Origin: Psammoneis japonica
Taxonomy: Eukaryota
Assembly: GCA_008632985.1 (NCBI GenBank)
Contig: QPGO01000163.1
Coordinates: 1-64,000, forward strand
Reading direction: 5' to 3'
Length of the DNA: 64,000 bases
The translations under genes and the position numbers were made by a program. How positions within the stretch are numbered: position 1 is the first letter of the stretch; each line of letters begins with the position of its first letter. The notes beneath the pieces were generated by a model, which was given only the letters and a program-made list of their open reading frames with translations, had not been told where the DNA came from and made no database searches. Below, piece by piece: positions 1 to 54,870 of the stretch.

Positions 1-128
1 TCCACTTCCACAGTGTAAATGGCATGCACAAGTGTTTCGCTCAAAACATCATTGTGAAAATGTGTGCCCACAAAAGTCATTTTTGCTGCAATGAACAAAC
101 CCCTCACCTGCTTCAATGACGTTCCGGT

Positions 129-2874
129 TTGCTGTTGGGGCCTGAGCACATCCATCCTTTTTGGCGCCAAATCGTTTTTCCCAGTCCAATTCGTCATCTC
201 CCTGGTGTCGTTCCGACAGCGGAAAACACGGCCGTGTCCACAAGAGAAGCCAAGAGATGTCGCGGGTTGGCTCTGGGGAAGAACAGCAAATTGTCGATAA
301 CCAAGACAACGCAGCACAAGACCAACAATCGCATCACGGCCGAACGCTCCTTGCTGGCCGCCGCAACCTTGGTCATTCTATGCACCGATACGATGTTTGT
401 CGATGGGGAAGACAAAGTGTTTGAAAACGTGGTCCCAAACTTGACCACTGGTGCAAAAACCTTTCTCAACCTTGTTGAAGGCTGTTGTGGAAACAAAGCA
501 CATCCGATGAGCATTCCTCACATGGGAATGGACGACACTGGGCTTGCTGCCACAAAAGGCCCCCAACCTGGAGACCCTTTAGAATGGTGCCTTGTCGCCA
601 CCAAAGACAACGCAGATGCAGGAAGTCACTCAAAGTACAAGAGAGGCAAAGATCCATCATTTGAGTGCCTCAGAGCGAAACTTGCCATCACAATGGTTGC
701 TTCTGGAGAGGCCACACCAGTCATGTTGACGTTCAAGAAGATGATGGAACGTCAACTCCCAAAAGGACACACAAAAGATGCGTGCAGCAATGAGGACAGT
801 GTGTGTTCAGTGGACGTGCATGGGCTGTGTCCAGCAGGTGATGCGAACATTGATGCTGATGTCGGCTTTGTCCTGTTCATGAGGGACGACATTGACAAAG
901 CTGAGCTCAAGCGCATGGTGATGCATCACAAGTTTGTCCATTTGCCTCACACACAGAGACAGTGTCACAAGTTGCAAGGCCGCACGGGTGCCTTAGACCA
1001 AGCACATGCTGAAGACGAGCGCAGCGTTCTTGTCATGGATGGTGACCGTGGACAAATTGATGCAAACACGGTTTGCATCAATTTTGACGAAAATTGATGA
1101 CAAAGAGAAGACAATCTCCGGCAAGACCAACCCTGCAAGGACCGGATCGGAAGCGTCTTGCAATCAAGCTGATGTCTTCAGCGCTGCAAAATCCATCCTG
1201 AAGAAACAAGCCACTGCCACAGAGTTGGACGTCCATGCTCACGCAAACAAGTTGGAGGCTGCAAGATCCCTGGAAAAGACTCCCCTTCAGCTTGGAAAGG
1301 GCAAGGATGCAATCGTCGACTTGCTTGCCAAGCTTCCGTCAATCCTGACTCAGTCGTTACAACGGAAGAAGATTCTGAAGGGATTCGTGGTCTCCGGTGT
1401 CATTGACCAGAAAACTCTGCATTGTCCTGATTTTGAATCCGTCATGTCTGCCATCAAACGGCAAGTCTCCCAAGAAGAACACAATCTTTGCCTCCGATCC
1501 TTCCCCACCTTGATGAAAGCATGGGATGACAACGGGGGTCACATCCCCAAAACAGTTTTTGATGAACTCGAGTTCCCCGAGGACCGTGATCCCGCTGGGA
1601 ACATGTGCCAGCATGATGCCGGCATTTCACAAGAACCCCTGCAGTGTGCCAAACTTCTTAACTCTGTTGTTCAAAGGGCAGCCCAGAAGGAACGACAGGA
1701 TCGCCTGCGGGCCAAGAAGCAGGCAAAACTTGTCCGTGAAATTGCAGCGCACAACAAAGCATGTGATGAAGCCATGGCAGCGGAACCCAAAACACTGGAC
1801 ATGATGAGCCGCAACGAGAGTCTTCAAGTTGTGGATGAGTCAGACGGACCAATTGTGGCACAGGCATCGATCGACATGTGCGCAAAACTTGCCGTTTCAC
1901 AGTTGCAGTCATTTGTGAATGCACGCTTCTTCCGATCAATGAAAGACAAGCCGTCAAAGTTTCACACAAAGAAGGGTGCATTGGCGGAGGCAAGGGATGA
2001 ATCTGAGAATGACAAAAACTCCGGCAGGCAGTTCGATTCCCCACCGACTTCACTCGTTCACAAGCTCATCTGCTCATGTTGCAAGGCTTGGCACCTTCCT
2101 GTCATTTGTGAAAAAAAGGAACTGCCCAGTGAGACCACAGCTCCTGCTCCTGTCCTTCCAGTTGATCCTGCTGACCATGAGGTCAGGCTTCCGCTGTGTG
2201 AGAATCCAATGTGGCAAGCAAGTGCGGCAAAGGTTGCAGACAATTTCATGTCTTTTGGTCCGGAGCAAATGCAACAAACTGCTCAGTTGGTTCTGATTCT
2301 GATGCAACAACTCGAGACACACAAACGTCAGCGACTCAAGAACTGTGACACTCGCCGCAACCCCTGGACACTCCAATGGACAGAACAGAATCTACCACTG
2401 ATGGCGGCCATGATGGTCAGCTGCGGCCATGTCCTCCCAAACATTGAATTTCGGAGTGGTGCTGCATCCTTGTCACTCCACCCAAAGGCACAGTCTGAGA
2501 AGTGCACTGGAGATCGTTGCATGAAGGAAGGTGTCTGCGGATTGTGTCACTTGTGCACACCCGTTAGGTTGGGAATTAGGTCGGGAAAGAGTTCAGGTGC
2601 CAATGCAAATTTTGGAGTGCGAGACGATGAGCATCTAAAGTGCTCTAAGCTCACAGAATCAAAGCACATCTTGAAACACCTGGAAGAGTCTAAAGTCAGT
2701 GGTGCTCTTTGGTCCAAGAAATTGGCGATGGCAGGTTGTCTGGCTGAGCTTGCCTGCGATCTCTGTCTTGGCGAAGACAATGTCTCTAACTCCCCTGGAT
2801 TCGAAAGTTTCGGATTGCTTCAGATTCACTTGAGCCAGGACCTGGAGACAAATGGTGTCCCTCTGCAGCTTTGA
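129..2874 (+). mobile_element. Degenerate transposase-like ORF pair (possibly DDE_1/pogo-like), frameshifted, TpA-stripped
   Basis: Overlapping ORFs 129-1097 and 1006-2874. Motifs 'ATPVMLTF', 'VLVMDGD' and 'ILKGFVVSGVID' loosely resemble DDE_1 transposases. The 622-aa ORF contains no Tyr. Confidence 0.35.
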
Positions 2875-4845
2875 CAGCTGCTGTCTCATGCGCATTGTCC
2901 TCCAGTGCGGAGCCATCTACACACGGGTCAAAAAGAACAACGAACTGTGTTGGTCTCAGTGCTGAAAGGGGATGCATGACACACAACTTCTCCATCAACA
3001 CTTGCCGTTTGCACCAAGTTCTAATCAAAGCAGTGGCACTCTCTGCCAGAGAGTTCATCCCATTGGCAGAGACTTCTGCACTTGGGCCGGTGCCGTCTTC
3101 ATCACTGCATGGCTTTTCACGCACTGCCGGCACCGTGCTCCCTGCTTCTAGCAGAGAAATGTCATTCCTGTGTCTTGGAACAGCAGATCGGTAAGTCATC
3201 ATTCAAATGGTGCACACACACAATCCACTGGGCCTGCAGTGTGCATGCGGTGCTTGCGCCTGCACTCCATCCCACATTTTGTCAAATGGCCATGCATCTC
3301 TAATCTAGAGACACTGAGTGCTCCAGGATCTGATTTCCCCACATGAGCAAAGAGTGCAAAGAGCATCAAAAGATGTCGATCATGTAGAACATGGGCCTGG
3401 AAATGCCGCTGCAAGCTTTAACGGTCAACGACAGTCACACTGGAAAATGACAGGCAAAATGAAAACATGAGAGGAAAAACGTACACAGTGACAATCCATT
3501 GGGGTTACATGACACAGCACACTCACTGGGGCACCCTTCAAAGGCAGAGCTGAGTTGCCTCACCAATTTTTGTGCCCCCAAGTGCCATCAGCGGTTCGTG
3601 GCATCCGTGCATTCAAGATGAGTCGATGAGCCCGCCAACACAAGCCTCAACCTTCACATTTTACCCATTGCAAAGCCTGGAGTCGTAGTTGCACCACAAA
3701 GATCTCCCAAAATAACGTGGACAATATAATGTCTTAGATGATGATGACAATGCGGTTGAAGGGTAGGTGGAAAGGGTCAAAAAGGACCAGATGCCTGCAC
3801 GCATGATCGAGATGCACCAAAAAAGGATCGTCAGGCAGGCCAGTTTCGTCAAAACGAGTGCAAAACTCAATCAATCACAACACACTCACAGGGTTACCTT
3901 CTTTGGACTGTGGCAAGGCTGTCTGACAAATGCCAACGTCGTGAGCATCCCCGAGACTCTATCGCATCGTTTTGTTTACACGGCATGCACTGTCAAGAAA
4001 TTGTCATCGCCCGAAAAACGACATGCTGTGATTACGAGCCGACCAAGACATCCAAAAACATGTCAAGCTCGTCACGAGTCCAAATGAATAGTACAAATAG
4101 ATGTGCCAAAGGATAAAGAGTGACGAGATGAAGCATGAGGCTCCCAAACGGATACGCTGTGGTGGCGCAAACGCCATGAGAAAGACACCAACATCACAGA
4201 CACAATAATCGACCGCACGAGACGATCAATCAACCTTGCACGCTGCAACAAAAAACAACAATGATCTTCAGTGAACAGGAAAACGACACAAATTGAGAAA
4301 ACACAAAGAGAACTTGCCGTTGCGACGTTGTCGACCATTCACATGTTACACGCACCCTGCAGCAATCGAGTCACGAGTCGAGGCACATTGCCGTTTGCAC
4401 CGTGTGTCAAAACCAAAGCCCCCCAGAAAACCAAACCAATGCATCAACCTCTTCATAACAACGGTGGAAAAAAGATCCCCCATGAAAGATGCATCAACCC
4501 AACGATGCATGCCATGGCGAGATGCATCAAAGTGAAACATGCCGTTTTTGATGCAAAATTGGGACCGGTTGAGTCCAATCGAATGATTCGACTCTCGTGC
4601 TTCACCGTGGTGAAATTTCAGTCACGGACCGGTTGAGTCCTCCGGCAGTGTTGCAATTGTGCTTTTGAGCTTGGGTTCGAATGATTCGAATCCAAAACCA
4701 TTGGTGAAACATTCCATTTCATCAAAATTGCAGTCCGCGGAAATTTGGAAAGAAGGGTCAGGGTCGACCTCTTCATGAGACGGGGTAAAGTCGTTGGATG
4801 CCATGGCCAACAGTCAGATGCCGATTCATGTAGAATGTGCAGGAA

Positions 4846-4902
4846 TCACAACAGCACACCCTCTCGTCAAATGCTTTTTGGGGAGAGGGTGTGCTGTTGT
4901 GA
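4846..4902. repeat. Perfect 20-bp inverted repeat (17-nt loop)
   Basis: TCACAACAGCACACCCTCTC (4846-4865) and GAGAGGGTGTGCTGTTGTGA (4883-4902). Confidence 0.9.
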
Positions 4903-5150
4903 AATGGGTGGAGTGTTGCGCATGTAGAAAAGGCACCAAAATGCAGGTGGGGGAGCTGTTGACTGGAAAAATCGTGGTTTTCGCGGCAAAGCCGCGTTTT
5001 TGCGCGAAAGCACAAAAACCCACGGGCCTTTTCGCGCGGCTTCGCCATGCAAAAGCACGAAAAGCACGCACGCCTCGTGCGGCTGCAGCAGAGCAATTTG
5101 TTGCACGAAATCGCACACGAGCAAAGCAGCGGCGGCCATGATGACACCAT

Positions 5151-6050
5151 CCGACATGCATGGCAAGAGAGCCCAAACAAGTGGGTTGCTGTTGTGCATT
5201 CAACATGTGTGCACTGCTGACATTGCCCTCGACATTACAACACCTTCAATTGTCATTTTCAGGGGGCTCCAAAAAACCGCCTTGTGGACCCGAGTCCGGG
5301 AGGAGTTCCATCTGGTGGCTTGCGCTTGGGCCGATCCGACATGTGTTGCAAGAGAGCCCAAACAAGCAGGTCGTTTTGTTGAATTCAAAATGTGTGCACT
5401 GCTGACATTGTCCTCGACATTGCCACACCTGCAATTGCTTTTTCCAGGGGGCTCCAAAAAACCGCCTCATGGACCCGAGTCCGGAGGAGTTCCTTCAGGT
5501 GGCTTGGGCCGATCCGACACAAATCTAAAGAGAGCCCACACAAGTGGGTCGTTTTGGTGAATTCAAAATGTGTGCACTGCTGATGTTGCCCTCGAAATTG
5601 CCACACCTGCAATTGTCATTTTCAGGGGGCTCCAAAAAACCGCCTTGTGGACCCGAGTCCGGAGGAGTTCCTTCAGGTGGCTTGGTCCGATCCGACACAT
5701 GTCGCAAGAGAGCCCAAACAAGCAGGTTGCTGTTGTGCATTCAATGTGTGTCTGCTGCTGACATTGCCCTCGACACTGCCATGCCTGCAATTGCTTTTTC
5801 CAGGGGGCTCCAAAAAAAGGCCTTGTGGACCCGAGTCCGGAGGAGTTCCTTCAGGTGGCTTGGGCCGATCCGACACACATCGTAAGAGAGCCCAAACAAG
5901 TGGGTCGCTTTGGTGAATTCAAAACATGTGTGCTGCTGACATTGCCCTCGACATTGCCATGCCTGCAAGTTGTTTTCAGGGTGCTCCAAAAAACCGCCTT
6001 GTGGACCCGAGTCTGGGAGGAGTTCCTTCTGGTGGCTTGGGCCGATCTTG
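5151..6050. repeat. Tandem repeat, ~178-bp unit, ~5 copies
   Basis: Recurring 'ccgaca...aagagagcccaaacaag...gggggctccaaaaaaccgcc...ggacccgagtccgg' starting near 5151, 5336, 5514, 5692 and 5870. Confidence 0.9.
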
Positions 6051-8390
6051 CAAAGGCGGATCCGGCTCGTTGTCATCCAAGATTTTTTTCAGCTCATTCT
6101 CGCACACACGAACTCGCCTGCCCAGGGCAAGGCAAGCAGGAAGCTTTTGGTCTTGCCCTTTCCTGCCTGGTTGTTTTTGAACCTCAGGGCTCACCCCCTC
6201 AAACTCTAACATCTTTGCCATGCATCTATCCTCCAGATGCCTTGCGCACGCAGACAGGTCGTTGTCGTCCACTTCTTTTGATTCCAGAGTTGTCTTGTCC
6301 TCCTCATGGGCCACGTGTTCAACAAGCTCCAATGCATGCTTGAGAAGAGACTTCTCGGTCATGCAAGCCACAGCCCTGGCTGCTGAATTGCATGTCAAAG
6401 TTCTTGCAGCTGCTGGAAGAAAGTTTGGTGTGGCAGCAGGTGTGGTGGCGGCGGCAGCACTGGTTGCGGCGGCGGCAGCACTTGGTGCGGTTGCGACTGG
6501 TGGAGCTTGCACAGGTGAGGGCACTTCTAGTCTTGGGCTCTTGTTGCTCTCCTCTGCGTTGCTGGTTTCTCTGGGGCGCTGCCTTGATGCTCTGGCTCCC
6601 GGCGGAGTTTTCAACAGTGACAGCTTGCTTCGTGATGCCTGGAGTTCTTGTTGTTGCTCCTGAATTTGGTGTTGTTGCTGGTGCAGGGTCATTTGCAATG
6701 AGGCAATGGTGCGACGATCAGACTCTTTTTCTTGCAACAGCTTTGCCACCATTTGCCTTAGTTCCAACAGAACACTTGGCTGTTGATTGACAACCGCTGT
6801 CACTTGGGCCTGTCCTCCACCTGGAGCAACTTGGGCCATTTCTGGATTGCGTTCTCGGAAGTCTTTCATGATCATGGTGGACCACTCATCAAGAACAGCC
6901 TCTGGAGAAATCCCTGGGAATCGGGCATTGGAAATGCTTGCACTTCTGGCAGCAGCACGAAGTTTCGTCACCACTGCATTGTGGTCCTTGCATTCTTGGG
7001 TCACTCGGACATGACACATTGTCAATGATGCGAGTCCCGTCCGAAGGATTTGGTGCAGCCCGCTCTGCTTGTCTTTAAATCCTTGTGCTGAAATGACAAA
7101 CGTTTTCATCAGCAATTCCTCCACCTGTGCGGTGACATGCATTCCTGGGCTCTCGAGTCGGGGGACCCGCATGTTGACATCGACGTTGTCACATCGACAA
7201 AGGGCCTCAGCAGCTCTGAGTCCCAGCACAAACAAAGTGCAGTCTGCACAGGAATCCAACGACGTGCCAGTGGTGTGCCCTGAATGACAACAAACATCTT
7301 TGATCCCAATCAAAGGGTGAGCCATGAGTTCCGTGATGGAGCCACGTCGTTCAGATTTGTGGCTGAAAACGTCTTTGCAACATTTTCGGAACAATCATTG
7401 GGCAGATTGTCACGAATGATCTCATCAGTGACAAGTTTTGTCACCTGACTGTCCTTGTGCTTGTGAAGATCTGGAAAGACAAAGTTGGCAATGGCCTGTT
7501 CATCTGCACCAGAACAAAACAGGCCACCCTCCACGGCCCAAAAGCTTGCCATGCAATGATGGAAATCCAGGAGGAATTCAAGCCGGTGCGGGACCATTGC
7601 CATGGCACACTTTCGGAGCAGCTTGAGCTCCACCCACCCAATGTCTGTCACTTAAAAGAAAGGGTGCCATTGCCAATCAATGCAGCTGTTGAACTTAATT
7701 TCACCACCTCGACCCACCGCAAAACATGGCATCACAAGCCAACATCGCTGCTGCAAGGCTCCTTCCCTGTCGCACAGCAGTGTGGCTTTGTCAAACAGCT
7801 TTTTGACAATGCTCAGGAGATCAATCTTCTGAAGCATGGTCCCAATGTCATCACCCGGGTGTAATTTGATTGCCCGGTCCTGACAGAGTGGCTGGGTGGC
7901 AGTGTTGCCAAATGTGTGTTCACCGCCTAGAGACGTGTGGAACCGAGTGCACTCTCTTTCAAAAGTGGGGCGCATTCTGCTCCACCACTCAGGCACATCT
8001 GATGGCCTCAAGCCTTGAAAGTCTGGGTGGTTTGGAAATTTTTCTCATAAGAACTTGATGACCTTGCCAATGCATTTTGACAGAGAAGATGCCATCACCA
8101 GCTTGACGGGCTCGTCCGAATTGTGACTCCTCGGGGGTTGAAGGTTGGCATCAAAGTTTGCTGGAATGGGAGTGGTGGAAATCCACAAACAGAATTGAAA
8201 CATCTCTGCTTCCAAATTCTTGCCATCAATTTCGACAAAACGCATTTGAGCTGTCGGCAGCCTGCCCGTCGAATTGCAAAATGCCTCATGCAGCCTTGTA
8301 GCCGCCCTGTTGGCTTGGGCCGTGCTGTCAGCATCCTCCCATGTTGCGGCCCAACTGACCAGGCAGAGAAGGTTGCTGGCTGGTCATGGT
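5976..8390 (-). mobile_element. Decayed tyrosine-recombinase (Crypton-like) ORF
   Basis: Collinear ORF pieces 8245-8045, 8011-7652, 7651-7310 and 7394-5976. Motifs 'GRGGE', 'SHKSERRG' and 'SGHTTGTSLDSC' follow the R...HxxR...H/W...Y order of tyrosine recombinases, with Cys (TGT) where Tyr is expected. Confidence 0.5.
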
Positions 8391-11192
8391 GTCCACGTCC
8401 ACTGTCAGCAATGATGTGATGACGGCAATGCAGCAATGGGACGTTCGACAACTGCCGATTGGTGTTGCCAACGAGGTGCGGCATGTTGTTGTGCGTCTTG
8501 TGCATTTTTGTCTTGTGCATTGTGCGTTGGGCGCTACGCGCGAAAACCGTAGAAACACCACCACGTAGATTCTGGTGCAGATTCCATTTTTGCAAGGTTC
8601 TCATACGAAAATGGGCACAGCACACAGGGAAAAACTGGTGGGTGCAGGTGGAAATGATGAGCCGAGCACTCATGTCATGTGTGGCAAACTTGGGCGTACA
8701 GCAGAAGAAATGCCCTTGGTCTGTGGTGACGTGGTGACGCAAGGCTGCGGTGAAGCTGTTGAAAAGCACCATCAAAGTTAACGTTTCCACAAACATGTGA
8801 CAAATTGATCAACAAAAAAAGCAATGTTCGACAACAAAAGACATGCTGAAAGTCGTTGGCAACTTTAAATCAAAATAAAACGGCAAAAATTACAGACACA
8901 AAAAGGTGACAACAAAATCAACTTGACCATTAAAATTGAAACCGGGTTGACCTAAAAACAATGTACTTTCATCAAATTAAATGTTCCGAAATTTCCAAAG
9001 GAAAGTGAACAACACCACATTGTGGCCTCTGATGTGCTGGTGGCATGCACCATGAGTTTCATCTGACAAGTGAGGTCACCCCACACACAGTTTAATGACC
9101 TGCCAGTTTGATGACCCCTGCCATGGTGATGGCCAAGAGAGTGCATGCATTTTCATTGAAGAAGGAGACCACAAAGCCATGACAATAAAAAGCAACAAAG
9201 GTTTCTCACACCTCATCAATTGCACAATGACAACATGGTGTGTGAGCAGTTGGTCACAAGGCAAAGCAAAATGTTAAAGTCCACCATCAAATGGCAAACT
9301 TCAGGTTCATGCAACATGGCAAAAAAAGCACTGGCACACTCTTCTGACCAAAATGCCCTGCCTCCTGTCTTCAACATGTCACAAGTCTGACAAATGTCTG
9401 TCCCTTCCAGTTGGCCTGGCTGTGCTCTTTTCAAGCTGTGCAATCTTGGCCAAATGTGGAGCAATTGGGTTTTGAACCCTCATCAGATCTGGCTCTCCCC
9501 TGCTTGCTGCCACACTCTTGAGTCTCCTTGCTTTGTTCTGCACCAATGCTGTGTTTTGCTGGTGGCATCTCAGGAGCTGCTGTTCTGATGCTGAGTCTGA
9601 AAACACTGTTTGCTTCCCTCTGAGTGCGGGCACACCCACCACCACTTTGGGTGTTTGCCACGATGCTTGAAAGATGATGTGACAGGAATTCTGCATGTTC
9701 CCCCAGGGTTCCAACAAGCCTGTCCTCCATTGCATGATTTTCTGTGTGGAGGTCTGACATGATGTCTTTCAGCTGTTTTGGCTGGGCTTCTGTTGCAACA
9801 TGTTTCTCAGAGTTTGAAAATGTCTTTGGCAACTGCTCCCTGGTTCTGGCTGCCGTGGCATCCTCCAAGAAGGCCACTTGGTTGCCCCCTCATTGTTTTC
9901 AGAGATCCTCCTTGTGCTCTTTTCTCCTGGCAGCATTTCATCTCTTTCCAGGAAAAAATCTTCAAAAACCTTGGCTGGTGGCAGGTGCTGAAAGGCATGT
10001 CATTGTTGCATTGGAGGCAGGCTCTCAGACATGCTCTGTGCATTCTCAGATGCCTTGAATTGGCCCCAATCAACTGGGAATGTTGAGAACTCTGGCATCA
10101 GCCAAAAAAAGACTGTGGTTTGGTGGCTGCACTCACTCTTGAGAGCAGTTGGCAGCTCAAGTTTGTTCTTTGAACATGTGTGGCATTTTTCTTGGCTCCT
10201 GTGTGCACAACAAGAAGCAGATCTTGTGACAGCAATCCCAATGGCATGATGCTGGGACAACACTCAGCATCCTGCCACATTTCTTGGATGTGAGTCAAGT
10301 CACTGGGAAACTGGGCTGGTCTCCATTGAAAAAACCCAGCCAAAATGTCATCAAACAAAAAAGCTCTTCATGTTGGGGGCAGCACCAATGCCAAACATTG
10401 TGCATCCATGAGTTGGTTCCACATGACTGCTCACCACAGTGCAGCTCCTGCTTGCAAAGCAACACTTGCTTTGTCACATTGTGCTTTGTGCCTCATGTTT
10501 GGGAAAGGTCAAAGTGCCACTTGAGGACTTGTGGTGGAATGTTCAAAAGGAATGTGTCAAAGGCTCTACATTTTGACATGTTGACAATTTTGTTTTGACA
10601 AAGAGGTGTGCTTCAGAAGCAGGGTTTGGCACATCAGTGCAGGGAAGCTCACACCAATGGGGGGGGGCAGCTGTTGTGCCTCTTCAATGTGGCGCCATTT
10701 TGGAATCTCTTGCCATTCTGCATGCATGCTCCATTTCCAATGCACTGCCAGCCTGGACAGAGCACATGCCGCATTCCAAGCTTTCTGACATCAGCTTGGA
10801 ATGTCAACGCTTTGCACCCCATTTCTCTGTTTCGTTGCAAGGATCCTCCCACAAATTGAGCACGGCAAAAGGAGCAGCAAATGGAGTGCAAAATAAATGG
10901 CCTCATTCTGATGCGCAAAACAATGCTGAGGAATGTGCAAATTACATTGCCAGAACGGAATGAGGGTGTGCGTGGGAATGAAGTGCGGAATTTGAAGAGG
11001 CTTTTTTCGTCTTGTCGTGTCATGCACTCCGTTTTGAGGCCTTTCTCGACGAACAGTGGCACTCACATTCAGAGCGATTCTTGGGTTCTCGGTTCCTGTG
11101 CTGTGTGCCGTGTGTGAGGAGGAGAACTTGTGTGAAATTGAACATCATTAGACTATTTAAAAGAATAGAAACATAATGTCCATCTCGTTCTT

Positions 11193-13801: not shown

Positions 13802-14699
13802 TGTGGAGAATGGTTGTTTAGAGAGAGCTGCTGCGGACAGCGAACTCGGTTGGATGCGGAAATGGTGGCTTGAGAGCACCACAGGGCCCCAAACAGAGCA
13901 GATGCAGTCGCAGCTTGCAGGAGCGAAGATCCGTGCTTATTTTTTACGACTGAGACTGGCGGTTCGTTCCATCTTTTTACCTGTTGCGGCCCTCCTATCA
14001 TATGATAGAGAGACCACCGGCATCCGGTTGAAGCGCCACATTTCCACGTCATGCCACGTCACGTCACGTCACCTGTGATTTCCTGCCTCCAGGGGAGAGT
14101 GGACAACCATTTTTGCTGTTGTTGTGCAACTGGACTTCTTGGACAATCCACGCCCCACGCACACCCCGAACAGGCTGTCATTCCCTCCATCCATTCCTCC
14201 CAAAGCAACAGTGGCTGTTTTGCCATGTCCACCCCCCCCCCCAAAACGATGCCACCAACATTGCCGGTGAACCCCCAAAAGCAATGTGCAAAATGATGAT
14301 GTTCTTTTTTGTGCACACTGCACGCAATTTAAACAACGACCAGCACACCAGAGACAAGCATCCACCACCTTTCTCAAATTGACTCAAAGCTGAAAAACTG
14401 CAAAAACAAAGGTGGCGAAAGGAGGGAAAAAAGTGCAAACCAGACAAGCAAAGGCTGCCAAGACATGCGAGCAGAAGTCATTGCTGCAGCACAAAAACAA
14501 AACAATGCACAGCTTGTCACCACAAAAGAGCAATCAATGGGAAAGGCAGGACACAAAATGGACAGCTCCAGCAAAAGCAAACCAAGCTTGTTGCAAACAG
14601 GTGAGTTGAAACAACAACATTGTCCCTTGCCAGCCAAGTGATGCAGCCATGGCTGAAAAACTTTTTGCTCTTGTTGAGTGCCAGCAAACACTTGTTGAG

Positions 14700-14887
14700 A
14701 GTTGTTTGACATGAACAAACAAATTTGTCAAGCGTGTTCACACCTGTCCAAGACACCAGAGGAGGTCTTGGCAGACCAAAAATCAGAGAAAAAGCACAAG
14801 CATCTCAAGCCCTGTCTTGAGCAACACTGTCATTTTGCTCCCTTGGTTTTGTCATGCAATGGACTGTTTGGCAGAAAAGCCAAGAGA
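14700..14887 (+). mobile_element. C-terminal remnant of a non-LTR retrotransposon ORF (restriction-like endonuclease type)
   Basis: 'SEKKHKHLKPCLEQHCHFAPLVLSCNGLFGRKAK' resembles the EKKRKY..C...RHFTPLV.S.DG..G.EA tail of RLE-type elements, with apparent Y->H and R->H changes. Confidence 0.45.
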
Positions 14888-15127
14888 NNNNNNNNNNNNN
14901 NNNNNNNNNNNNNNNNNNNNNNNNNNNNNNNNNNNNNNNNNNNNNNNNNNNNNNNNNNNNNNNNNNNNNNNNNNNNNNNNNNNNNNNNNNNNNNNNNNNN
15001 NNNNNNNNNNNNNNNNNNNNNNNNNNNNNNNNNNNNNNNNNNNNNNNNNNNNNNNNNNNNNNNNNNNNNNNNNNNNNNNNNNNNNNNNNNNNNNNNNNNN
15101 NNNNNNNNNNNNNNNNNNNNNNNNNNN
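14888..15127. other. Assembly gap (N run)
   Basis: Run of n. Confidence 1.
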
Positions 15128-16299
15128 CCCATCATTGTCTTGGGAGATCTCCATCAATTTGTCCCAAATCAGCTCCAGGTGTCCTCAGTGGGAGGATGGT
15201 GTGGGTCTTTGGAGCATTTGGTCTTGGCACCAAAACCCAGGGTGCCACACCTGGTTTCTTTTTTTCAAGGAAATCAGACAAATGACGCAAGCATCTGTTG
15301 AATCAACAATTTTGATGTCAACATGATTGTTTGCAATCATTTTGGTTGTCACATGTTGTGTGGTCTTGCCATGATGACAAAAGATCAAAAACACTTTGAA
15401 ACATTCTGAGGTGGAAAACCCGGGTGCCACACCAATGTGCTTGTGACAGCTGCATCTCTTGCAGACCACAAGCTTTGCCGTTGGTTCCCTGTTGTGACCT
15501 CTGCCTTCAAAACTTGACACAGAATGACAGTTTGGCATCATGTCATGTCAAAAGAGTGTTGGCAATGCCAAACAAAACAGCTGCAAAAAGAAACCCGGGT
15601 GTGACACCCGGGTTTTTGCATGTGAAAATCCCAAATGATCTCTTCACAGACACCAAGGGACCACAACTCAGTTGGACTCCACTTGTCAAGACAGAATGTT
15701 GACAACCTGTCTCCAGGCATTTGCATGTGACAACCATTTTTTGCTCACATGACTGCACTGGCTGTGCACACACTGCAATGACCACTTTTTCCATGTGGTT
15801 TGCATGACAAAACAAAACCTGAAATCTGTTTTCAAAGTCCTGCCATGCCTCCACCTGCAGCTCCAGCAACAAGCTGACCCACACTCCCAGCTCACTTGCA
15901 GTGTGGCAGGAGCACATGACAACTGACCAGGGCTGGCATCACCCGAGGGTGATGCCATGCCAAAACAACTTGCAATGGCTCTCGTGTCTCTGCAATGCTT
16001 GACTTGAACATGGGTCTGACCATGGCTGGCCAATTGCAAAGACAGTGAGCAGAGTGAGTGAGAGATGCTCCTCAACTGAATCCAACAAATGTGCCCTGTT
16101 CTTTGCCAGGTGATCACATCTGACTGTGAACAAGCAGCCTTTGCCTCCACACTGCATTGTTGCAAGAGTGCCACAAATCCCACCATTGCTCCCAAATGTG
16201 GTTCCCAACAGTGGCACCCCAATCCAGCATTTTGCGCTCTTTCAGAAATGCTCTGACACGTGCCACCAGCCAAGAGACATCAAGTCTGTGTCACACTCC

Positions 16300-16800
16300 A
16301 CAGAGAGATGAGAGAACCAACAATTGTGCTTGAACAACTGACCCCACCCAATCATGTCCTCCTGAGAATGGAGGGCTGATGCCATGTCACAATGGAGTTC
16401 ATCCAGACACAACATTTCATCTCAAAGTTGCATCTCGATGGCCAGCAGCTTTTCTTGTGCAAGCCTTGCACAAATGTCCTGCGCCAATCCTTGTCATGTG
16501 GACAGTGGAGGACATGGTCTCTGCCCTCCACTGGATGTCAACAGTGCATGCAGCAGTCTGGCTGGGCAAGATTGCAGCAATGGACAATCTTGTTCATTGG
16601 CAAAAGGACTTTTGTGCTGGTTTGACTGTGCTGACTTTCCTGCAGATGTTCCTGGACATCAGCTTCTCATGTGCCTCCCAGCCAACAGATTTGCAAACTG
16701 CGCCAGACCAGCCACACTTTTCTTGCATGCAGCGAATGAGAGCCAAGCTGCTGGAGGCCTTGCAGCAGAGAAAGGACTTGTGCTTGGAAGAGACAGTTGA
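16300..16800 (-). mobile_element. Decayed non-LTR retrotransposon C-terminal zinc-knuckle region
   Basis: Minus-strand translation gives 'CCMHC*HPVEGRDHVLHCP' followed by 'IGWGQLF', typical of LINE C-termini; heavily decayed. Confidence 0.35.
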
Positions 16801-18011
16801 GTTTTGGACAACCAAATCGCCAGAATGACTGTCAACAATCTGTTGGAAAGATCAGAGCATTTCATGCATCAGGCCCCATTCAGCAGAAAGCATGTTTGTG
16901 ATGTGGTGTTGCTGAAATTGATCTCTCTCTCTCTCTCTGCACCAATTGCCTCTTTGTCAATGGGTGAAGGGGGGAGAGCTTGGAAGTTGGACACATTGCA
17001 AACCAAGGAAGAGTTGTTGCAATGAAGATCCATGCCGCCATGTGCAAAGGTTCTGTGACAACAGCCCACCAACCTGAAGAGAAAACAAAAACAGGAGAGA
17101 AGACTGCACATGCCTCAGCTGTCAATGCAAAGATGGGCTAAAAACAGAGCTGGTCCTGACAGCCAATCAATGGAGTGTGCCGTCAATCCACATGGCTTGC
17201 ATGCAGGGGTTCAAGAAAATGGCAACATGGTGCTGAGTGCAGCATCTTGTGCAAACTCTGTGCATGACACATCATTGGAGTCCTCATGACATGAGGTTTC
17301 CTGATCAATGGCCACAAGCAGTCAGAATGGAAATTTTGACCCAACAGTGCTGCTCGAGCGTCACTGCACATGGCAAAAATTGTGGGGCTCCCATTCCACG
17401 TCAAAAACTGTGCACAAAATTGACAGTGAAACGCATTTGTGGTTGTGCACCAGATTTCGAGGGGGCACAACAATGGCATCAACGCAACATCATAAAAAGC
17501 TGCCGTCTCAAAATTTGCCAACACAGTCGTCTACCTCGTTGTCTCAGGAAAGCAAATCACTTTCAACTGTCTTTTGCGCACCAGAATTGCGCGTCAGTGC
17601 TTGGGGCACAATTAGTTTTGATGAAATAAGTGGGTTTTGCACGATTTTATGTGCTGAAAAAGCGCTTTTTCATGGAAAAACGCGACTTACCGGTAGTCGG
17701 GTGCGTCTTTGATCTCAGCTTTCCAAATCACGCTAAGTTTTTACAAAACACCGTACATAACGTTCTGCAGTACAGCATGTCCTTATGACCGAAAATTGTT
17801 ATTAACACTGGTGACCGTTGGCCCGAAGTGCTAAGACATTTTCATATATTTACATACGTGCACATACATAATAAAATAACAGCGATTCGAGCTGGCTTTT
17901 AGCGACCGCCTTCGCTCACTTTTTTCTCAAACGAAGTTGAACAAAGCTGATGAATGCAGTGTACTCTACGAGTAGCCCCAGCCCTATCATAGCCCCCCTA
18001 CAACCATCCCG

Positions 18012-25976: not shown

Positions 25977-27991
25977 TCACTCCTTTTCCTTTTTCGCCTC
26001 GACCAATGCCGCTTGGACAAGACCCAAAAAGGGTGGACTGGGTGATAATGGACGTGATTGAAACTCGGGATGGTACTGCACACCGACATAGTACGGATGA
26101 TGCGGCAATTCCGCCACCTCCATGCGTTGTCCGGTTTCGTCTCGTCCACAAAACAACAATCCGGCCGAATGAATTTTTTCGACATAATCGGGATTGACTT
26201 CGTAACGATGACGATGGCGTTCTTCAATTTCCTTTTGACGAGAATACAATTCAAACATTTTACAATGTTCTTCCAAAATCGTCTTGCGCAATCCCAAACG
26301 CATGGTTCCACCCAATTCCGTGGTGGAAATTTCCGGCATATTGACGACAACGGGATGGGGAGTCGATTCATCAAATTCCGTCGAATTGGCTCCCGAGAGA
26401 TCTAAAACAAACCGGGCATACTCGACCACCATGGCTTGAAAGCCAAGACACACACCCAAAAAGGGTTTCTCATTCAAACGACAATGACGAGCCGCCAAGA
26501 CTTTACCCAAAAAGCCACTATAGTAGAATAATAATGTGAATTAGAATAAAAAGTGTGAGTTTCTTTTCAAAACACAACAACAAACCACTATACAGTAGTA
26601 TACGCACCGATTCCCAAATCCACCGGGAACAATGATACCATTGGCACTCTTGACCTTGTTCCATGCTTCTTCATAGTCTTGTTCTGTTTCATTTTCTAAT
26701 TTGGTCGCCTCGACCCAAACCAATTCCAAATGACACTGACAAGCAATGGCGGCGTGCTGTAATAAAAAGAATAGAGATGAGTGAGTGAGTTTGTGTAATA
26801 ACAATTGCAACAACAATACCAATTCAGTATCATACCTTTAATGCTTTGATTACAGACAGATACGAATCTTGCAATCCCGTATACTTGCCAATCAAACAAA
26901 TTTCGACTTGGTCCTCAAACATTTCCATACCGTGTGCCATTTCCTTCCACGGTCCAAATTCCGGAATAGAATGGGGTAATTCGAGCAAGTCTTGTAAAAT
27001 ACCCGCCAATCCCTGTTGTTCTAATAGTAGAGGCACATGATAGACGTTTGCGACATCGTGAACACTGAGTACATTGGTGGCGGGAACATGACAAAAACTG
27101 GAAATTTTCGTCTTGGTTTCCTCCAATAATTCTTGAGTCGATCGACAAAAAATGAGAGAGGGTGACAATCCCAAACTGCGCAATTGCTTGACCCCATGCT
27201 GGGTCGGTTTGGTCTTTTGTTCTTCTGTTATAATTGGCACCAACGAAACAAATCCCAATAAAAAATTGGATTTTCCAACGCGAAATTGAAATTGTCGAAG
27301 GGCTTCCAAAAAGACAGCCGATTCAATATCACCCACTGTCCCGCCCACTTCAATCAAACACACATCTGCAACATTTCCAGGTGCATCCACGGGTATCTGC
27401 GCAACGCGTTCCAAATGTTGACAGATATAGTCGGTAATGTGGGGCACAACTTGAACCGTCTTGCCGAGATAATCACCACGTCTTTCTTTTAGGATTACAT
27501 CTCGATACACTTTACCGGTGGTTAAATTGTGATTTTCCGTCAAGGAGATATCTAAAAAACGCTCGTAATTGCCCAAATCCAAATCCGTTTCACCACCGTC
27601 CTTCAACACAAAACACTGGAGTGAATAGAAATAGTGTGTGAGAGTATGAGTGAGTGAGTATCAATATACGAGTCGTACGTATGAAATCAAGCACATGCAA
27701 CAGATACCATCACATCCTACTGTAGCACCGTACAAACCATATACACACAATCATACACAATACCACCACAACACACACACACACACACTACACTATTCAA
27801 CAAACAACAATAATCACGCACTTCACCGTGTTCAAAGGGACTCATGGTACCGGCATCGACATTCAAATAGGGGTCGATTTTAATGGCTGTGACGGATAAT
27901 CCACAACTCTTGAGCAAACGTCCCATGCTGGAAATCGTGACACCCTTTCCCAAACCGGAACGACACCACCCGTTACGACAATGTATTTCAT
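25977..27991 (-). CDS. pyrG: CTP synthase (4 exons: 27991-27822, 27615-26836, 26756-26608, 26517-25977)
   Basis: [93 protein letters not shown] introns restore frame. One base is missing in exon 1 near 27959, probably a consensus error. Confidence 0.95.
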
Positions 27992-28540
27992 GATTTGAAG
28001 ATATGATGGGATGAGAATAAGAGTAATAAGAGAGAGAAAGAAGATTAGTTGTATTGTGTAACAACAAACAACAACCGAAAATGAGAAGCAACGATGGAGC
28101 GGTTGGCTGTTGCCAACATCTCATTGCGCGACTATGCGCCATACATGCTGTAGAATTGTACTATTTCCAAAATTCCAAAAAAATGGCGCGCGTCGGAAAT
28201 CAAGAATCTCTGTCATTGAGGAAGATCATTTTCATTCAAATAATTGACATTATAAACAACAATATAAAGAAAAAGCTTCAAGAATGAAGGAATGCATTGC
28301 GCTATTTTTGAAACAAAAAGAACCCCAAAGAGGTGCGTGCACACGAACACACCATCCTTGTGCCATTTTGGCTCCTGGCTGGGAACAAAAAAAAAAGTCA
28401 TTGTGGAACATTTTCAAGACACATCCTTGTTGCTTTGTCTCTTGGGTGACAAGAACATTGCAGCATGTGTGAAATGTTTGGACATTTTGTTCTTGTCCTC
28501 TCTGCACCACATCATTTTTGAAAAAACAAACACAACAAAA

Positions 28541-28946
28541 GATGCGCTCCAGCTCTGGGTGGGACCTCGCACTGCTGAGCTGTGTGACATCAATGGTTTT
28601 TTTATTACACCGCATGTTGCACACATGGAAAGGTGCGAGACTTTTGTGAAATTTTGAATCATTTTGTGGTGCACTTGTTGAGTGATCTCCGTGCCCAACA
28701 ACTTTTCACATTTTTTGTTGCAGCGCGATTCACTCTACAGCGTGTTTTAAGAATTGCGCAGGGCAGGCACATTTGCAAAAACGTCAAGTGGCAAGAGGCA
28801 CAATTGCACCACAAACTTGGTTGTTTGTTTGATGTTGAAGATGAGCACATCCATTGATCAAATTCTTGCACTCTGCGGAGCTCGCACGCAGAATTCTGCG
28901 GGCCCAATGTCTCACGGAGTCCCACCTGCTGGGGCTGGAGCGTGTC
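28541..28946 (+). mobile_element. ~400-bp MITE, family A (subfamily 2)
   Basis: Termini gatgcgctccagctctgggtgggac...gtcccacc..ggctggagcgtgtc; internal match to 56007-56384 in reverse; flanks aaaa/aaac. Confidence 0.75.
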
Positions 28947-29809
28947 AAACTCAGATTGCACCCATGCAACGCATGCATGCAACATCATTCAATGTCACAG
29001 AAACAAAATGACATTTTGCACCTGGTTGCTTTTTGGTGTTTCAGACACTGCACAGCACCGTTGCACACAGCAGCAGGAGCCGCCGCCAGCAGGTGTTGTT
29101 TTTGCAGTGTGTTCTTGGTGGGGACAACCGCACACGACACACATAGGATTTCCATCAGAAAGTGCAATGTGCCCCCCATGAGCAGAGCACAGCAGCCATG
29201 TTCTTCATCTGAGTGCGGGCATGTGTCAATCATTGTGCACACCAAGGCTTGTGCGCTTTTGTGTTTTGTCTCGATGAGAATCGGTGCTGCTGCTGTGTTT
29301 GCTGGGGCTGCTGAGTGAGCTTCCCAGATGTGGAGTGTGGCATTTGACACCCTTGCACAAGGACTCACACATTGTTCTGTGGCTTTTTTGGCGAGCCATG
29401 TTGCTTTGTGCAACAAAATCTCCAAGGTTGCAGTTGTTGTGACAGCAACAAAAAACAACACCAACAAAACTGTTGGGGTGCCAGTTTTGGAGATGAGCGG
29501 CAGTTGAAGAAAGCATGCAAGCCCGCTTGCCATCTGCCCTCTTGGGCTGCCTCACGACATTGCCTTTTCCATTCTGCAGAACAACCCAAGAGGTCCCATT
29601 TGCACAGCAGTTTCTTTGTGCCATTTTTGGCTTGAGGGTGCTGCTGGTGCTTTTGCAGCAGATCAAATTTGGCCAAATTGCACTGGTGTTTTGCATGATT
29701 TTTTTCTGTGTTTTACCATGCAAAAAAAAAAATGGTGTTTTCACGCTCACAAAAAACCCATTTTGCCACCATCCTTCAACACAAAACACTGACCAAAAAA
29801 AGTTAGAGT

Positions 29810-30380
29810 GTGTGTGAGTGAGTGTCAATGCAAGTCATGGCATGAAATCAAGGACATGCAACAGACACCACCAAATCACACAGCAGCAGCCAGCGCCACA
29901 GAACTCATGCAAACACACCCAGCACACAAAAAATTGCACAATTCCACAACCACAAATGCACCTCACCATGTTCCAAAGTGCTCATGGTGCCAGCATCAAC
30001 ACTCAAACAGGGATTGATTTTGATGGCGGTCATGGACAATCCACAACTCTTGAGCAAACATCCCATGCTTGAAATTGTGGCACCCTTTCCCAAGCCAGAA
30101 ACAATGCCACCTTTGACGACAGTGCATTTCATGATGCAGACATGATGGGGGTTGATGAACAGAGTTGGGGTTGCAGTTGTGACAGCCAACAATGACAGCA
30201 ACAATGAATGAGAGGCAACACGAGAGCAGCTGGCTGCTGCAGCCAACTGTGCACCACTCAATCTGCAGAAATGCGGCATTGAAGAAGAGTGCATTTGTTC
30301 AAAAATTCAACATGGAGAAAAACATTTGCAATGACAAGCTTCAAACATGAAGGATTGGATTGCTCTTTTGGAAACGAGCT
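29810..30380 (-). pseudogene. Hypermutated DNA-level copy of CTP synthase upstream region, exon 1 and part of intron 1
   Basis: [57 protein letters not shown]; intron and upstream sequence also align to ~27650-28310. Confidence 0.9.
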
Positions 30381-30677
30381 TCTCAGACTCTTGTGGTGTG
30401 GCCACACACATGTTTGTTGTGCAAGCCATGATGTGTTGTGTGTCAACCAACAAGGCAAATGGCCAACTTTGTGCAAAATTGTTGAGTGATGCTCCATGTT
30501 TTTGCAAAAGTCTTTTTGGCCACCATGAGAACAAAAAATGATGTTTTCAAAAAATGTCAGAGCAGACAACGAGCTTGTGTTGTCACGTGAGAATTTTTTG
30601 CTGGCTGCCGTGTGCCATGTGGAATTTCATGTGCTGCACACAGCTGTGCTGACAGCAACACATGAGCAGCAAAGAGT

Positions 30678-30906
30678 NNNNNNNNNNNNNNNNNNNNNNN
30701 NNNNNNNNNNNNNNNNNNNNNNNNNNNNNNNNNNNNNNNNNNNNNNNNNNNNNNNNNNNNNNNNNNNNNNNNNNNNNNNNNNNNNNNNNNNNNNNNNNNN
30801 NNNNNNNNNNNNNNNNNNNNNNNNNNNNNNNNNNNNNNNNNNNNNNNNNNNNNNNNNNNNNNNNNNNNNNNNNNNNNNNNNNNNNNNNNNNNNNNNNNNN
30901 NNNNNN
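30678..30906. other. Assembly gap (N run)
   Basis: Run of n. Confidence 1.
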
Positions 30907-40224: not shown

Positions 40225-40770
40225 CATTCTCATTTGCACTCCACAACTCTTGGCTCTGTGTCTCTTCTTCATGTTTCAGGTGGTTTGCAGCAAAGGTCCA
40301 AATTGCCGTGCTGAGGGTCCATCTTTTAGAATGCATTGACTGGTGTTGCAACGGTTGTGAAAACAGCAGCAGCTCACATTGCCTTGGCGCTTGCTCTGAA
40401 GACATTGTTCTTGCTCTGCAAGAGCACTCTTTTTGCCTGGCACAACCAAGGAACATCAGCAATGCTGCAATGAATGCAGCTGAAGAATGATGCTTTGCAT
40501 TTTCATCTGAAACAAAGAGTCTCCTGGTGTTGGCAACAGAAGACCCAACTGTTGCATGTGCAGAGGAGGAGTGCATTCCCAGCAATCACAAGGAAACATT
40601 CCACTGCACTTCAGTGTCTGATGCTTGTCAGATGCCAAACTGCTGGCACATTCCCATTGCAGCTGGAGACTGCTGTGATGGCATGAAGCATCTGTGCAGT
40701 GGTTTGTTTGATGGCACAAATGTTCACATCTTGAGGCATTTGAGGAGCGAGGAATTTGCACAGGATGCAT
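40225..40770 (+). pseudogene. Hypermutated 5' copy of the 48086 oxygenase/F-box/SUMO-like gene (or of a close paralog)
   Basis: Aligns to ~48000-48545; nearly all TA and CG are converted to TG/CA. Confidence 0.92.
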
Positions 40771-40974
40771 GCCTGGGATGTCCTTGAATGGGGGAGCTCT
40801 GGTCATTCCAATGAAGTGTCAGCTAAAAATGACAATGTTTTTTGGACAAACAATGAAAACAACATCAACAACCCATGGATGATGGGCGATGACAACAAGG
40901 GCACTTTGGCTTGCCCCAGGATGAAATGAACAGCCCAGCTGCTGAGGAAAAACATGTTAAAACAAGCAAGACAC

Positions 40975-45439: not shown

Positions 45440-45975
45440 ACATGAGAAATCAAGCACATCACATGAGCACAACAGATGCTGCTACATCCCACTGCAGCAC
45501 CGCGCAACACAGCACACACAACATTGTGCAATCACACATCACAGAACACACTGCAACATTGCAAATTGTGCACTTCACCCTGTTCAAAGGGACTCATGAC
45601 ACCGGCATCTACGTTCAGGCAGGGATCAATTTTGATGGCTGTGACAGACAATCCACAACTCTTGAGCAAATGTCCCACGCTGGAAATTGTGACACCCTTT
45701 CCCAAACCAGACACAACAACACCCGTCATGACAATGCATTTCATGATTTTGAAAATGGAAGAGATGACAATGACAAAAAGAAGAGCAGCTGCAATGTGAC
45801 AACAACAACAACGACAGATCTCATTTCCCAGAATTTTAAAAATTGGCGCACGGCGGAAATGATGAATTTCGGAAATTTTAGATGATCATTGTCATTCAAA
45901 TGCATGTCATGCATGAAAACATTGACACTGTAAAAAGCCACAAACATGAAGGATTGGATTGCTTGTTTGAAAATC
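45440..45975 (-). pseudogene. Second hypermutated copy of the CTP synthase 5' end (upstream region, exon 1, part of intron 1)
   Basis: [57 protein letters not shown]. Confidence 0.9.
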
Positions 45976-54738: not shown

Positions 54739-54739
<1 letters not shown>

Positions 54740-54806
<67 letters not shown>

Positions 54807-54831
54807 CACACACACACCACACACACACACA

Positions 54832-54868: not shown

Positions 54869-54870
<2 letters not shown>

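Follow-up and report, generated by a model that had tools for sequence, protein, structure and literature searches.

The closest described system to the one examined in this study is that of the chlorarachniophyte Bigelowiella natans. In Illumina-sequenced mutation-accumulation lines of this alga, two integrated viral regions are reported to mutate at approximately 6e-7 mutations per site per generation, a 1000-fold increase over the background; 230 of the 231 mutations were A>G or T>C, all of those at TpA, and they arose in some lines only (bioRxiv 10.64898/2026.01.13.699255). The same preprint describes 124 clusters of 1-kb windows in the B. natans genome in which TpA is depleted and CpA and TpG are enriched, and its authors propose an ADAT2-like adenine deaminase. 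Neither a flanking rule nor diatoms are mentioned in the main text of that preprint, as distinct from its figure 2B and Table S2, which possibly include a sequence logo. No report of TpA hypermutation in diatoms was found in the literature searched, where the B. natans preprint was the only report of the process found. Here, a 64,000-nucleotide stretch of the diatom Psammoneis japonica (GenBank assembly GCA_008632985.1, contig QPGO01000163.1, positions 1 to 64,000 of the forward strand; the window) is shown to have undergone DNA-level TpA to TpG/CpA (A:T to G:C) hypermutation that is almost complete and confined to sharp silent domains, with genes and their intergenic DNA untouched.

Several other editing and mutation systems provide points of reference. 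The substrate of Escherichia coli TadA is U-A-C-G, and a U33-A34 context is found in every tRNA substrate of TadA/ADAT; to our knowledge, position 35 is G, A or C in the substrates of eukaryotic ADAT2/3 and is not occupied by U in any of them. AID/APOBEC and ADAR enzymes act by C to U change or at the RNA level, in a strand-coordinated manner and with other neighbor preferences. An animal ADAT2 is reported to deaminate both A and C in DNA, with GAA preferred for adenine (PMC10354150). In the repeat-induced point mutation (RIP) of fungi, C is changed to T mainly at CpA, which makes TpA, and both copies of a duplication are mutated (PMC2621366). Diatoms are also reported to methylate their transposons (PMC9998398).

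TA loss in sharp domains of the window

The window as a whole has a TA rho of 0.35 and a CG rho of 0.69, with TG at 1.51 and CA at 1.45. When counted in 250-bp bins, the TA deficit is not diffuse: two kinds of DNA alternate along the window, with 0-3 TAs per 250 bp in the low-TA blocks and 5-26 in the adjoining blocks. The edges of the stripped domains are sharp at this resolution, and one edge coincides with the ends of an inserted miniature inverted-repeat transposable element (MITE). Nine runs of low-TA bins (28,000 bp, 93 TAs) form the stripped set, and eight runs (33,000 bp, 1316 TAs) form the unstripped set; their TA rho values are 0.05 and 0.57, respectively. TG rho is 1.82 in the stripped and 1.23 in the unstripped DNA, and CA rho is 1.71 and 1.21. 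GC rho is also higher in the stripped set (1.23, compared to 1.01), an expected by-product because GTA becomes GCA and TAC becomes TGC. For dinucleotides other than TA, CG, TG, CA and GC, the shift in rho between the two sets is at most 0.12. Apart from a separate loss of CG, TA is the sole depleted dinucleotide; AA, CA and GA are not depleted, and the AA/TT values are 1.26/1.25 in stripped and 1.18/1.17 in unstripped DNA. The intergenic DNA of the gene islands is TA-rich, with up to 26 TAs per 250 bp, and the contrast is therefore not simply a matter of selection on coding sequence.

The direction of change can be read from a host gene and its copies. The functional exon 1 of a CTP synthase gene with its upstream sequence (27581..28032, minus strand) contains 29 TAs and is the unstripped parent of two stripped copies; the 5' exon proper lies at 27817-28032, and a downstream exon is recognized by Pfam. 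One copy occupies 29754-30170 (exon part 29957-30135) and is recognized as CTP_synth_N at 29908-30306 on the minus strand (E = 7e-19), while the other occupies 45570-45785 (exon alignment 45569-45747) and is recognized at 45535-45885 on the minus strand (E = 1.3e-22). Where the functional open reading frame (ORF) has a conserved Tyr in KIDPYLNVD, the stripped copies read INPCLSVD and KIDPCLNVD. Since the functional CTP synthase keeps the conserved Tyr and the copies have Cys, TA is the ancestral state and TG/CA the derived one. A single ancestral GGTACC site became GGTGCC in one copy and GACACC in the other, and because the products differ at the same ancestral sites, the two copies were stripped independently. 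The copies are located 2 kb and 18 kb from their parent, and one carries approximately 200 bp of upstream DNA; the fragments may have been copied by local duplication or through capture by an element. A second gene fragment shows the same contrast: the segment at 40230-40773, which copies the 5' part of a gene at 48004-48548, has 1 TA and 4 CGs, compared to 19 TAs and 18 CGs in the parent segment.

The clearest single comparison is between two copies of the MITE, a DNA-type element with terminal inverted repeats and a target-site duplication. The unstripped copy (63071..63460, plus strand) is 390 bp long, retains 19 TAs and is enclosed by stripped DNA; it is bounded by a 10-bp target-site duplication at 63061-63070 (TCTTTTGGCG) and 63461-63470 (TCTTTTAGCG). 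The stripped copy at 55572-55963 is 92% identical to it and differs almost solely at TA, where 17 of 19 sites are changed; among CGs the figure is 3 of 16, and among the remaining bases it is 11 of 319. Sixteen of the 17 changes at TA are transitions (A>G 7, T>C 9), so both strands were hit, and only 3 of 82 A's outside TA were turned to G. This is strong TA-specific hypermutation, on DNA, hitting both strands of one element. The MITE is present in very high copy number (5918 contigs from two public sequencing runs, X1 and X2, aligned over 55001-64000). Its unstripped copy either was inserted after its surroundings had been stripped or was protected.

Several further observations concern these elements. 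The two copies of the target-site duplication differ at one base (TTTTGG versus TTTTAG), a TG/TA difference in the context where loss is slow (see below); the flank could have been edited after the insertion, or a chance G>A change could be responsible, and this single site settles nothing. A related, inverted MITE copy lies at approximately 56006-56400, and arrays of a 10-bp unit (GTGCTCAAAT) at 55351-55502 and 56527-56604 flank the inverted pair (55.5-56.4 kb). One contig of run X1 joins position 55226 to 56827, omitting 1600 bp, which suggests an allele or another copy without the entire MITE pair. Metagenome hits to a 16-base motif of the MITE (93 loci) were dismissed as chance, with no BLAST match extending beyond 19-22 bases.

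Flanking bases and the order of TA loss

The original prediction, made for positions 1006-3420, was that TAY and RTA (Y, pyrimidine; R, purine) are hit while YTAR is largely spared. This segment contains 17 TAs, compared to approximately 96 expected at the unstripped density: 12 are in YTAR (CTAA 6, TTAA 2, TTAG 2, CTAG 2), three in YTAY, two in RTAR and none in RTAY. The excess of YTAR over its baseline share (208/1316) is significant (binomial p = 6.8e-7). The eight survivors that had been quoted are all where they were placed, within 2561-3310, and the sole TA left in the alignment at 40 kb is indeed in TTAG. Across all domains, 48 of the 93 surviving TAs are in YTAR, 22 in RTAR, 19 in YTAY and four in RTAY, while the unstripped DNA has 208, 383, 342 and 383, respectively; the residual TAs are thus unevenly distributed over contexts relative to the gene islands (chi-square 82.7, p = 8.1e-18), and the claim that survivors are mostly YTAR is borne out both locally and window-wide. 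Normalized survival is highest for TTAA (4.7), followed by CTAA/TTAG (3.0), CTAG (1.8) and GTAA/TTAC (1.45), then CTAC/GTAG (0.74), ATAA/TTAT (0.6) and ATAG/CTAT (0.42), with GTAC, ATAT and ATAC/GTAT at approximately 0.15 each.

The products of TA loss reveal the same preference. Four alignments of stripped and unstripped paralogues cover 73 TA sites, of which 55 have TG or CA in the stripped copy, three are unchanged, eight fall in gaps and seven have other dinucleotides; the sites outside the TG/CA outcome are mostly in the two older pairs, which are 73-84% identical. YTAY sites gave TG 11 times and CA four times, with one TA kept, and RTAR sites gave TG twice and CA 12 times, also with one kept. 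The symmetric classes were more balanced, with eight TG and 12 CA at RTAY, where no TA was kept, and three of each at YTAR, where one was. In the two asymmetric classes combined, the product predicted from the proposed change of TAY to TGY and RTA to RCA was found in 23 of 29 TG/CA outcomes (binomial p = 0.0023; Fisher p = 0.0025). In addition, stripped DNA carries an excess of TGY/RCA of approximately 12 per kb, compared to only 4-6 per kb for TGR/YCA. The TGY/RCA excess holds in domains with little CG loss, and it therefore does not stem from CpG decay. Three independent counts, namely survivors, alignment products and the excess of product k-mers, thus agree that a flanking preference exists. 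They also agree that it is a preference and not an absolute rule, as had been proposed from the conversion of ctagg to ctggg in the MITE, which is correct.

A finer description is given by a model in which both strands of each TA are exposed and the base 3' of the A determines the rate. The model is additive over the two strands and accounts for the survivor counts in all 16 NTAN contexts, with fitted strand-resolved T-A-N rates of 2.47 for T, 1.83 for C, 0.94 for G and 0.45 for A; the context rule is graded (T > C > G > A) and finer than a division into Y and R. The ratio of fast to slow rates derived from the products is near 4. The next base out also matters: T occurs two bases 5' of TA in 53% of survivors, compared to 29%, and the symmetric effect is seen for A two bases 3' (p = 4.5e-6), making these outer bases protective. 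Because YTAR and an outer T or A both protect, the best-protected sites resemble TTTAAA or TCTAAA.

These rates imply an order of loss. Both strands of a TpA are open to the change, and the event is approximately 3-4 times faster with a pyrimidine 3' of the A (on the opposite strand, with a purine preceding the T). RTAY, favorable on both strands, therefore disappears first, YTAY (mainly to YTGY) and RTAR (mainly to RCAR) follow, and YTAR is the last to go. The domains, to which no strand is assigned, differ in how far TA loss has progressed; the observed and expected counts given for them exclude positions 1-1005 (7 TAs). Three are at an intermediate stage. The block at 2501-3420 retains 11 YTAR (5.8 expected), no RTAY (10.8 expected) and three of the mixed classes (20.4 expected); the domain at 44501..47000 retains 12 (15.8), none (29.4) and five (55.5), respectively; and the domain at 61251..63070 retains eight (11.5), none (21.4) and one (40.4). 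Together, these three have 31 YTAR (33 expected), no RTAY (62 expected) and nine mixed sites (116 expected), whereas the other eight counted domains have 29 (144), two (269) and 33 (507). The view that YTAR is largely spared accordingly holds for the intermediate domains but not for the others, in which most YTAR sites have also been lost.

Contents of stripped and unstripped DNA

The first stripped domain (1..3420) has 0-5 TAs per 250 bp, compared to 5-26 in unstripped DNA, and contains the segment 1006-3420. Its part at 1-2500 is near saturation, with one YTAR in 1006-2500 (9.4 expected), and it is followed by the intermediate block described above; downstream, TAs in all contexts reappear from approximately 3480. 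The next domain (4251..8500) has lost TA while retaining most CG (rho 0.62), with no RTAY (50 expected), 11 mixed sites (94 expected) and eight YTAR (27 expected), and includes a 178-bp tandem array at 5149-6042. Four domains are stripped of both TA and CG: 9001..11000 (CG rho 0.10), 14001..17500 (CG rho 0.21), 28751..32500, which includes the CTP synthase exon-1 pseudo-copy with upstream sequence (29754-30170), and 38251..42500, which includes the stripped gene-fragment copy at 40230-40773. The second CTP synthase copy (45569-45747) is in the intermediate domain at 44501..47000. Both MITE copies near 56 kb are within the domain at 54451..58000, where CG is retained (rho 0.67), and past the unstripped MITE the stripped DNA resumes at 63461..64000, with two TAs in 540 bp. 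Both runs of N in the window, at 14888-15127 (240 bases) and 30678-30906 (229 bases), fall within stripped domains, which is consistent with repeat-rich DNA being difficult to assemble. Contigs of run X1 (approximately 65x word depth) cover two stretches of the stripped sequence, 61599-63098 and 63434-64000, and differ from the window at one letter in each; the platform of this public run is unrecorded, and its reads may be those from which the assembly was made, so that the match lends limited support to the reality of the sequence.

CG loss accompanies TA loss in these domains but does not track it. CG rho is 0.40 in the stripped and 0.93 in the unstripped set, and the depletion is strong in six domains (rho 0.10-0.43) and weak in the others (0.45-0.67), while TA loss is strong even where CG is largely kept (1-8500 and 54451-58000). 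The loss is greatest at TCGA and least at GCGC, AT-flanked sites being the most affected. One dual A/C deaminase with a TCG preference was considered as a common cause and rejected, the gradient being mild (T 0.93, C 0.65, A 0.62 and G 0.31 in the CG-depleted domains). The CG loss looks like the ordinary decay of methylated CpG in repeats, that is, a separate and slower companion process in which CG becomes TG or CA in the same domains.

The stripped DNA that could be recognized consists of MITEs, the 178-bp tandem array and fragments copied from nearby genes, while the recognizable genes lie in unstripped DNA; Pfam identifies a CTP synthase, an L-aspartate oxidase, a 2-oxoglutarate (2OG)-oxygenase/F-box/SUMO-like protein and a DUF6824 protein. 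Parent genes are unstripped (29 TAs at 27581-28032 and 19 at 48004-48548) even though their copies are stripped. Stripped DNA has 1.67 TAA and 0.87 TAG per kb, compared to 9.52 and 8.39 in unstripped DNA. The stripped domains yield long stop-free frames without Tyr and rich in Cys and His, because TAA, TAG and the TAY codons have been erased. A 625-aa ORF at 997-2874 (plus strand) was considered as a gene and rejected: it matches no Pfam family, a comparison with 7998 candidates of 343-1094 residues revealed no homologue, and the loss of TAA and TAG from this DNA makes a false ORF the best reading.

Some of the genes in the unstripped islands deserve brief description. At 48056-49684 (plus strand), one frame joins a 2OG-Fe(II) oxygenase domain (PF03171), an F-box and a C-terminal SUMO/ubiquitin-like domain; no TET/JBP family is among its Pfam hits, and no link to editing is claimed. 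An intron-less gene for an 857-aa protein at 58304-60877 (plus strand) is part of a large family, represented in Nitzschia inconspicua by dozens of paralogues; among these, some are named type III restriction enzyme/helicase or have AAA domains. Diverged copies of this gene are found on other contigs of run X1, and the copy in the window is unstripped despite being one of many; no Tyr-less (stripped) relative was found among 91 homologues of the protein, the lowest Tyr content being 1.6%. A GC-rich (62%) tandem array at 21525-23682 (minus strand) has 15/18-bp units encoding Pro/Thr/Gly-rich repeats. The paralogous genes at 18049-19077 and 20564-21142 (plus strand) combine Cys-rich modules (CPxVxEGACxVCGA) with PT repeats (Pfam PT) and probably encode secreted or cell-wall proteins. 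For two proteins of the window, the best named homologues are from diatoms (Nitzschia, Cylindrotheca, Seminavis, Asterionellopsis and Pseudo-nitzschia; 38-66% identity), and neither has a near-identical counterpart on record.

Mechanism and comparison with known systems

The process may be explained by a TadA/ADAT2-type deaminase that would convert adenine to inosine in a 5'-T-A context after being recruited to silenced chromatin, where it would act on both strands. Targeting may be set by the chromatin domain rather than by sequence homology; targeting by chromatin domain and residence time is suggested because the parent genes and the high-copy MITE are unstripped. The target A is always preceded by T, the loss being restricted to TA. 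Adenine deamination is plausible, though unproven, and is ranked as the leading chemistry because of this obligatory 5' T, which recalls the U33-A34 context of tRNA substrates, the ability of an ADAT2 to edit DNA and the pointer from B. natans. Of the 5'-T-A-Y enzyme proposed in the original prediction, the flanking preference has held up in three counts, whereas its identity as a TadA-like adenine deaminase goes beyond what the sequence can establish.

A number of points weigh against this explanation and against the simple scheme of graded loss. First, A to G at T-A-Y is equal to T to C at R-T-A, and from the sequence alone the two are inseparable. The order of preference 3' of the A (T >= C > G > A) departs from the substrates on which TadA or ADAT2/3 naturally act, and the sole ADAT2 tested on DNA is reported to prefer GAA, not TA (PMC10354150). 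Strand-coordinated tracts were not found when the skew between TGY and RCA was measured per 500 bp; its variance is 2.69 in stripped and 2.07 in unstripped DNA, and the two outliers are simple repeats. One exposure parameter fits poorly across both sets of domains, with the mixed classes surviving at 8% in the three intermediate domains and 6.5% in the other eight, and YTAR at 94% and 20%; this misfit may come from a floor made up of TAs that arose anew, from context dependence beyond that fitted or from a second activity that works more slowly. The baseline NTAN spectrum was taken from gene islands, and the original make-up of the stripped DNA may differ; the alignments sidestep this problem but rest on approximately 70 sites in four pairs. 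Finally, 146 ORFs of 90 aa or more from stripped DNA were compared with Pfam, and none matched a transposable element or viral family; the only true hits were the two CTP synthase pseudo-exons, which are of host origin, and it is possible that heavy mutation conceals where the stripped DNA came from.

The main rival of adenine deamination is a thymine chemistry, in which a TET/JBP-type dioxygenase would oxidize the T in 5'-R-T-A to 5-hydroxymethyluracil (5hmU) or 5-formyluracil (5fU), and mispairing with G would produce RCA. This route is formally equivalent to the adenine route for every count made here, and 5hmU is enriched at TpA and TpC in dinoflagellates. In these organisms, 5hmU is reported to be enzymatic in origin and linked to transposon silencing (PMC11572971), but base-resolution mapping of 5hmU in Breviolum is reported to reveal no sequence motif (PMC11071213), and among the literature matches listed, none combines diatoms with thymine modification. 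Moreover, 5hmU pairs mostly with A, and near-complete conversion would demand a very mutagenic intermediate. We therefore consider thymine oxidation unlikely, but stronger than any of the other alternatives.

Less likely again is a route without any dedicated base-modifying enzyme, in which the silenced domains would be repeatedly excised and resynthesized by an error-prone polymerase of the DNA polymerase eta (Pol eta) type; extending from a T/A primer end, this polymerase would place G opposite T (WA to WG). At its WA hotspot, as in somatic hypermutation, Pol eta mutates both TA and AA. The change of TA to TG with an obligatory 5' T resembles this hotspot, and CpG decay in the same domains would provide T:G lesions that trigger repair. 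However, AA and TT are not depleted in stripped DNA, the A's outside TA are almost unchanged in the MITE pair (3 of 82 to G), and TA loss is strong where few CGs have been lost (1-8500 and 54451-58000), all of which makes this route improbable.

RIP-like targeting, in which duplicates are recognized by homology and both copies are mutated, would account for the presence of repeats in the stripped DNA, including MITEs, tandem arrays and gene-fragment copies. The evidence on copies is difficult to reconcile with it, since the CTP synthase exon and the segment at 48004-48548 retain 29 and 19 TAs, respectively, and both the high-copy MITE at 63071-63460 and the multi-copy 857-aa gene are unstripped. 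In addition, whole domains are stripped, including sequence without a repeat in the window, and the base change is the opposite one, TA being lost and not made; such targeting is very improbable. Hardly more can be said for a glycosylase that excises adenine at TpA, followed by REV1-type insertion of C opposite the abasic site: it would yield the same A to G transition, and a flanking preference would be possible, but bypass of abasic sites usually leaves a mixed spectrum, whereas 16 of 17 changes in the MITE pair are transitions.

It is also highly improbable that the pattern is an artifact of mis-assembly or of systematic miscalling where bases are modified, or that the DNA is foreign and never contained TA. 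For neither the assembly nor runs X1 and X2 is a sequencing platform recorded, and X1 may derive from the same data as the assembly, which leaves some room for error. However, the paralogues in the window show that TA came earlier and that outcomes were independent between copies, indels and further substitutions of the kind found in old pseudogenes have accumulated in the stripped copies, short Logan contigs (approximately 65x word depth) reproduce the stripped sequence, and the same signature is reported for new mutations in the Illumina-sequenced lines of B. natans. Old pseudogenes with indels, independent outcomes and context-dependent products argue against an artifact more strongly than does the match to run X1. 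ADARs favor a 5' U or A and a 3' G, while here AA is unedited and a 3' G is disfavored. Hyper-editing of repeat transcripts (A to I) by an ADAR-like enzyme, fixed through reverse transcription, is the least credible of the alternatives, since both strands of a single MITE are hit (A>G 7, T>C 9) and the targets include a DNA-type MITE and a gene fragment with upstream DNA, even though ADARs are noted to produce A to G changes preferentially after a 5' U (bioRxiv 10.64898/2026.01.13.699255, Discussion).

That a diatom carries this signature at saturation suggests that the process is ancient or recurrent among major marine algae, and if so, it would be a main force on the repeat and pseudogene landscape of their genomes. 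The flanking rule offers a biochemical fingerprint against which deaminases or thymine-modifying enzymes, as well as the mutations of B. natans, can be tested. For annotation, the Tyr-less, Cys/His-rich false ORFs of stripped DNA are traps. A natural enzyme changing A:T to G:C on double-stranded DNA would also be of interest to genome engineering. It is conceivable, although doubtful, that TpA editing is an old chromatin-guided DNA-editing defense shared by distantly related SAR algae (diatoms and chlorarachniophytes), carried out by a DNA adenine deaminase derived from the tRNA-A34 enzyme that would recognize the palindromic TpA on both strands, with an extended preference for R-TA-Y (better AA-TA-TT, worse TT-TA-AA), and erasing any silenced DNA. 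Such an ancient defense would have shaped genome composition, erased duplicated host genes and provided a natural double-strand A-to-G editor.

Compared to known systems, the decay of CpG by deamination of 5-methylcytosine is similar in that a palindromic pyrimidine-purine dinucleotide is converted to TG or CA on either strand of silent DNA, but the base and the chemistry differ, and TA loss is faster (17 of 19 sites versus 3 of 16 CGs in the MITE pair). AID/APOBEC and ADAR resemble the process described here as host-driven editing that disables selfish sequences; in contrast to an ADAR-type pattern, both strands are hit here, there is no excess strand skew and a 3' G is disfavored. TadA, ADAT2/3 and the TadA-derived adenine base editors likewise convert A to I beside a 5' U or T. 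The natural enzymes, however, act on tRNA loops, whereas the changes described here are found in double-stranded chromatin domains and on both strands, and the C of the TadA substrate is matched or surpassed by T at the 3' position. Fungal RIP is also a heavy, dinucleotide-specific transition mutagenesis of non-genic repeats that destroys coding capacity, but in the diatom TpA is destroyed, the direction being fixed by the conserved Tyr codon, and parent genes remain intact.

The process in B. natans is the most similar, with near-exclusive A>G and T>C changes at TpA that are confined to regions, and with windows that are poor in TpA and rich in CpA and TpG. The two differ in host lineage (a diatom here, a chlorarachniophyte there), in extent (a TA rho of 0.05 here, compared to 0.45 reported for the B. 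natans nucleocytoplasmic large DNA virus (NCLDV) region and a cluster cut-off of 0.43) and in targets, which are MITEs, tandem repeats and host-gene fragments in the diatom and integrated viral regions in B. natans. In addition, CpG decay co-occurs with TA loss in the diatom, where the flanking rule was measured, while the mutation rate comes from B. natans only. From these likenesses, we infer that the process in P. japonica is probably the TpA hypermutation measured in B. natans, now seen in a second major lineage and at a far more advanced stage. The kind of process has already been described in B. natans; what is new here is its extension to a diatom and the measured specificity rule.

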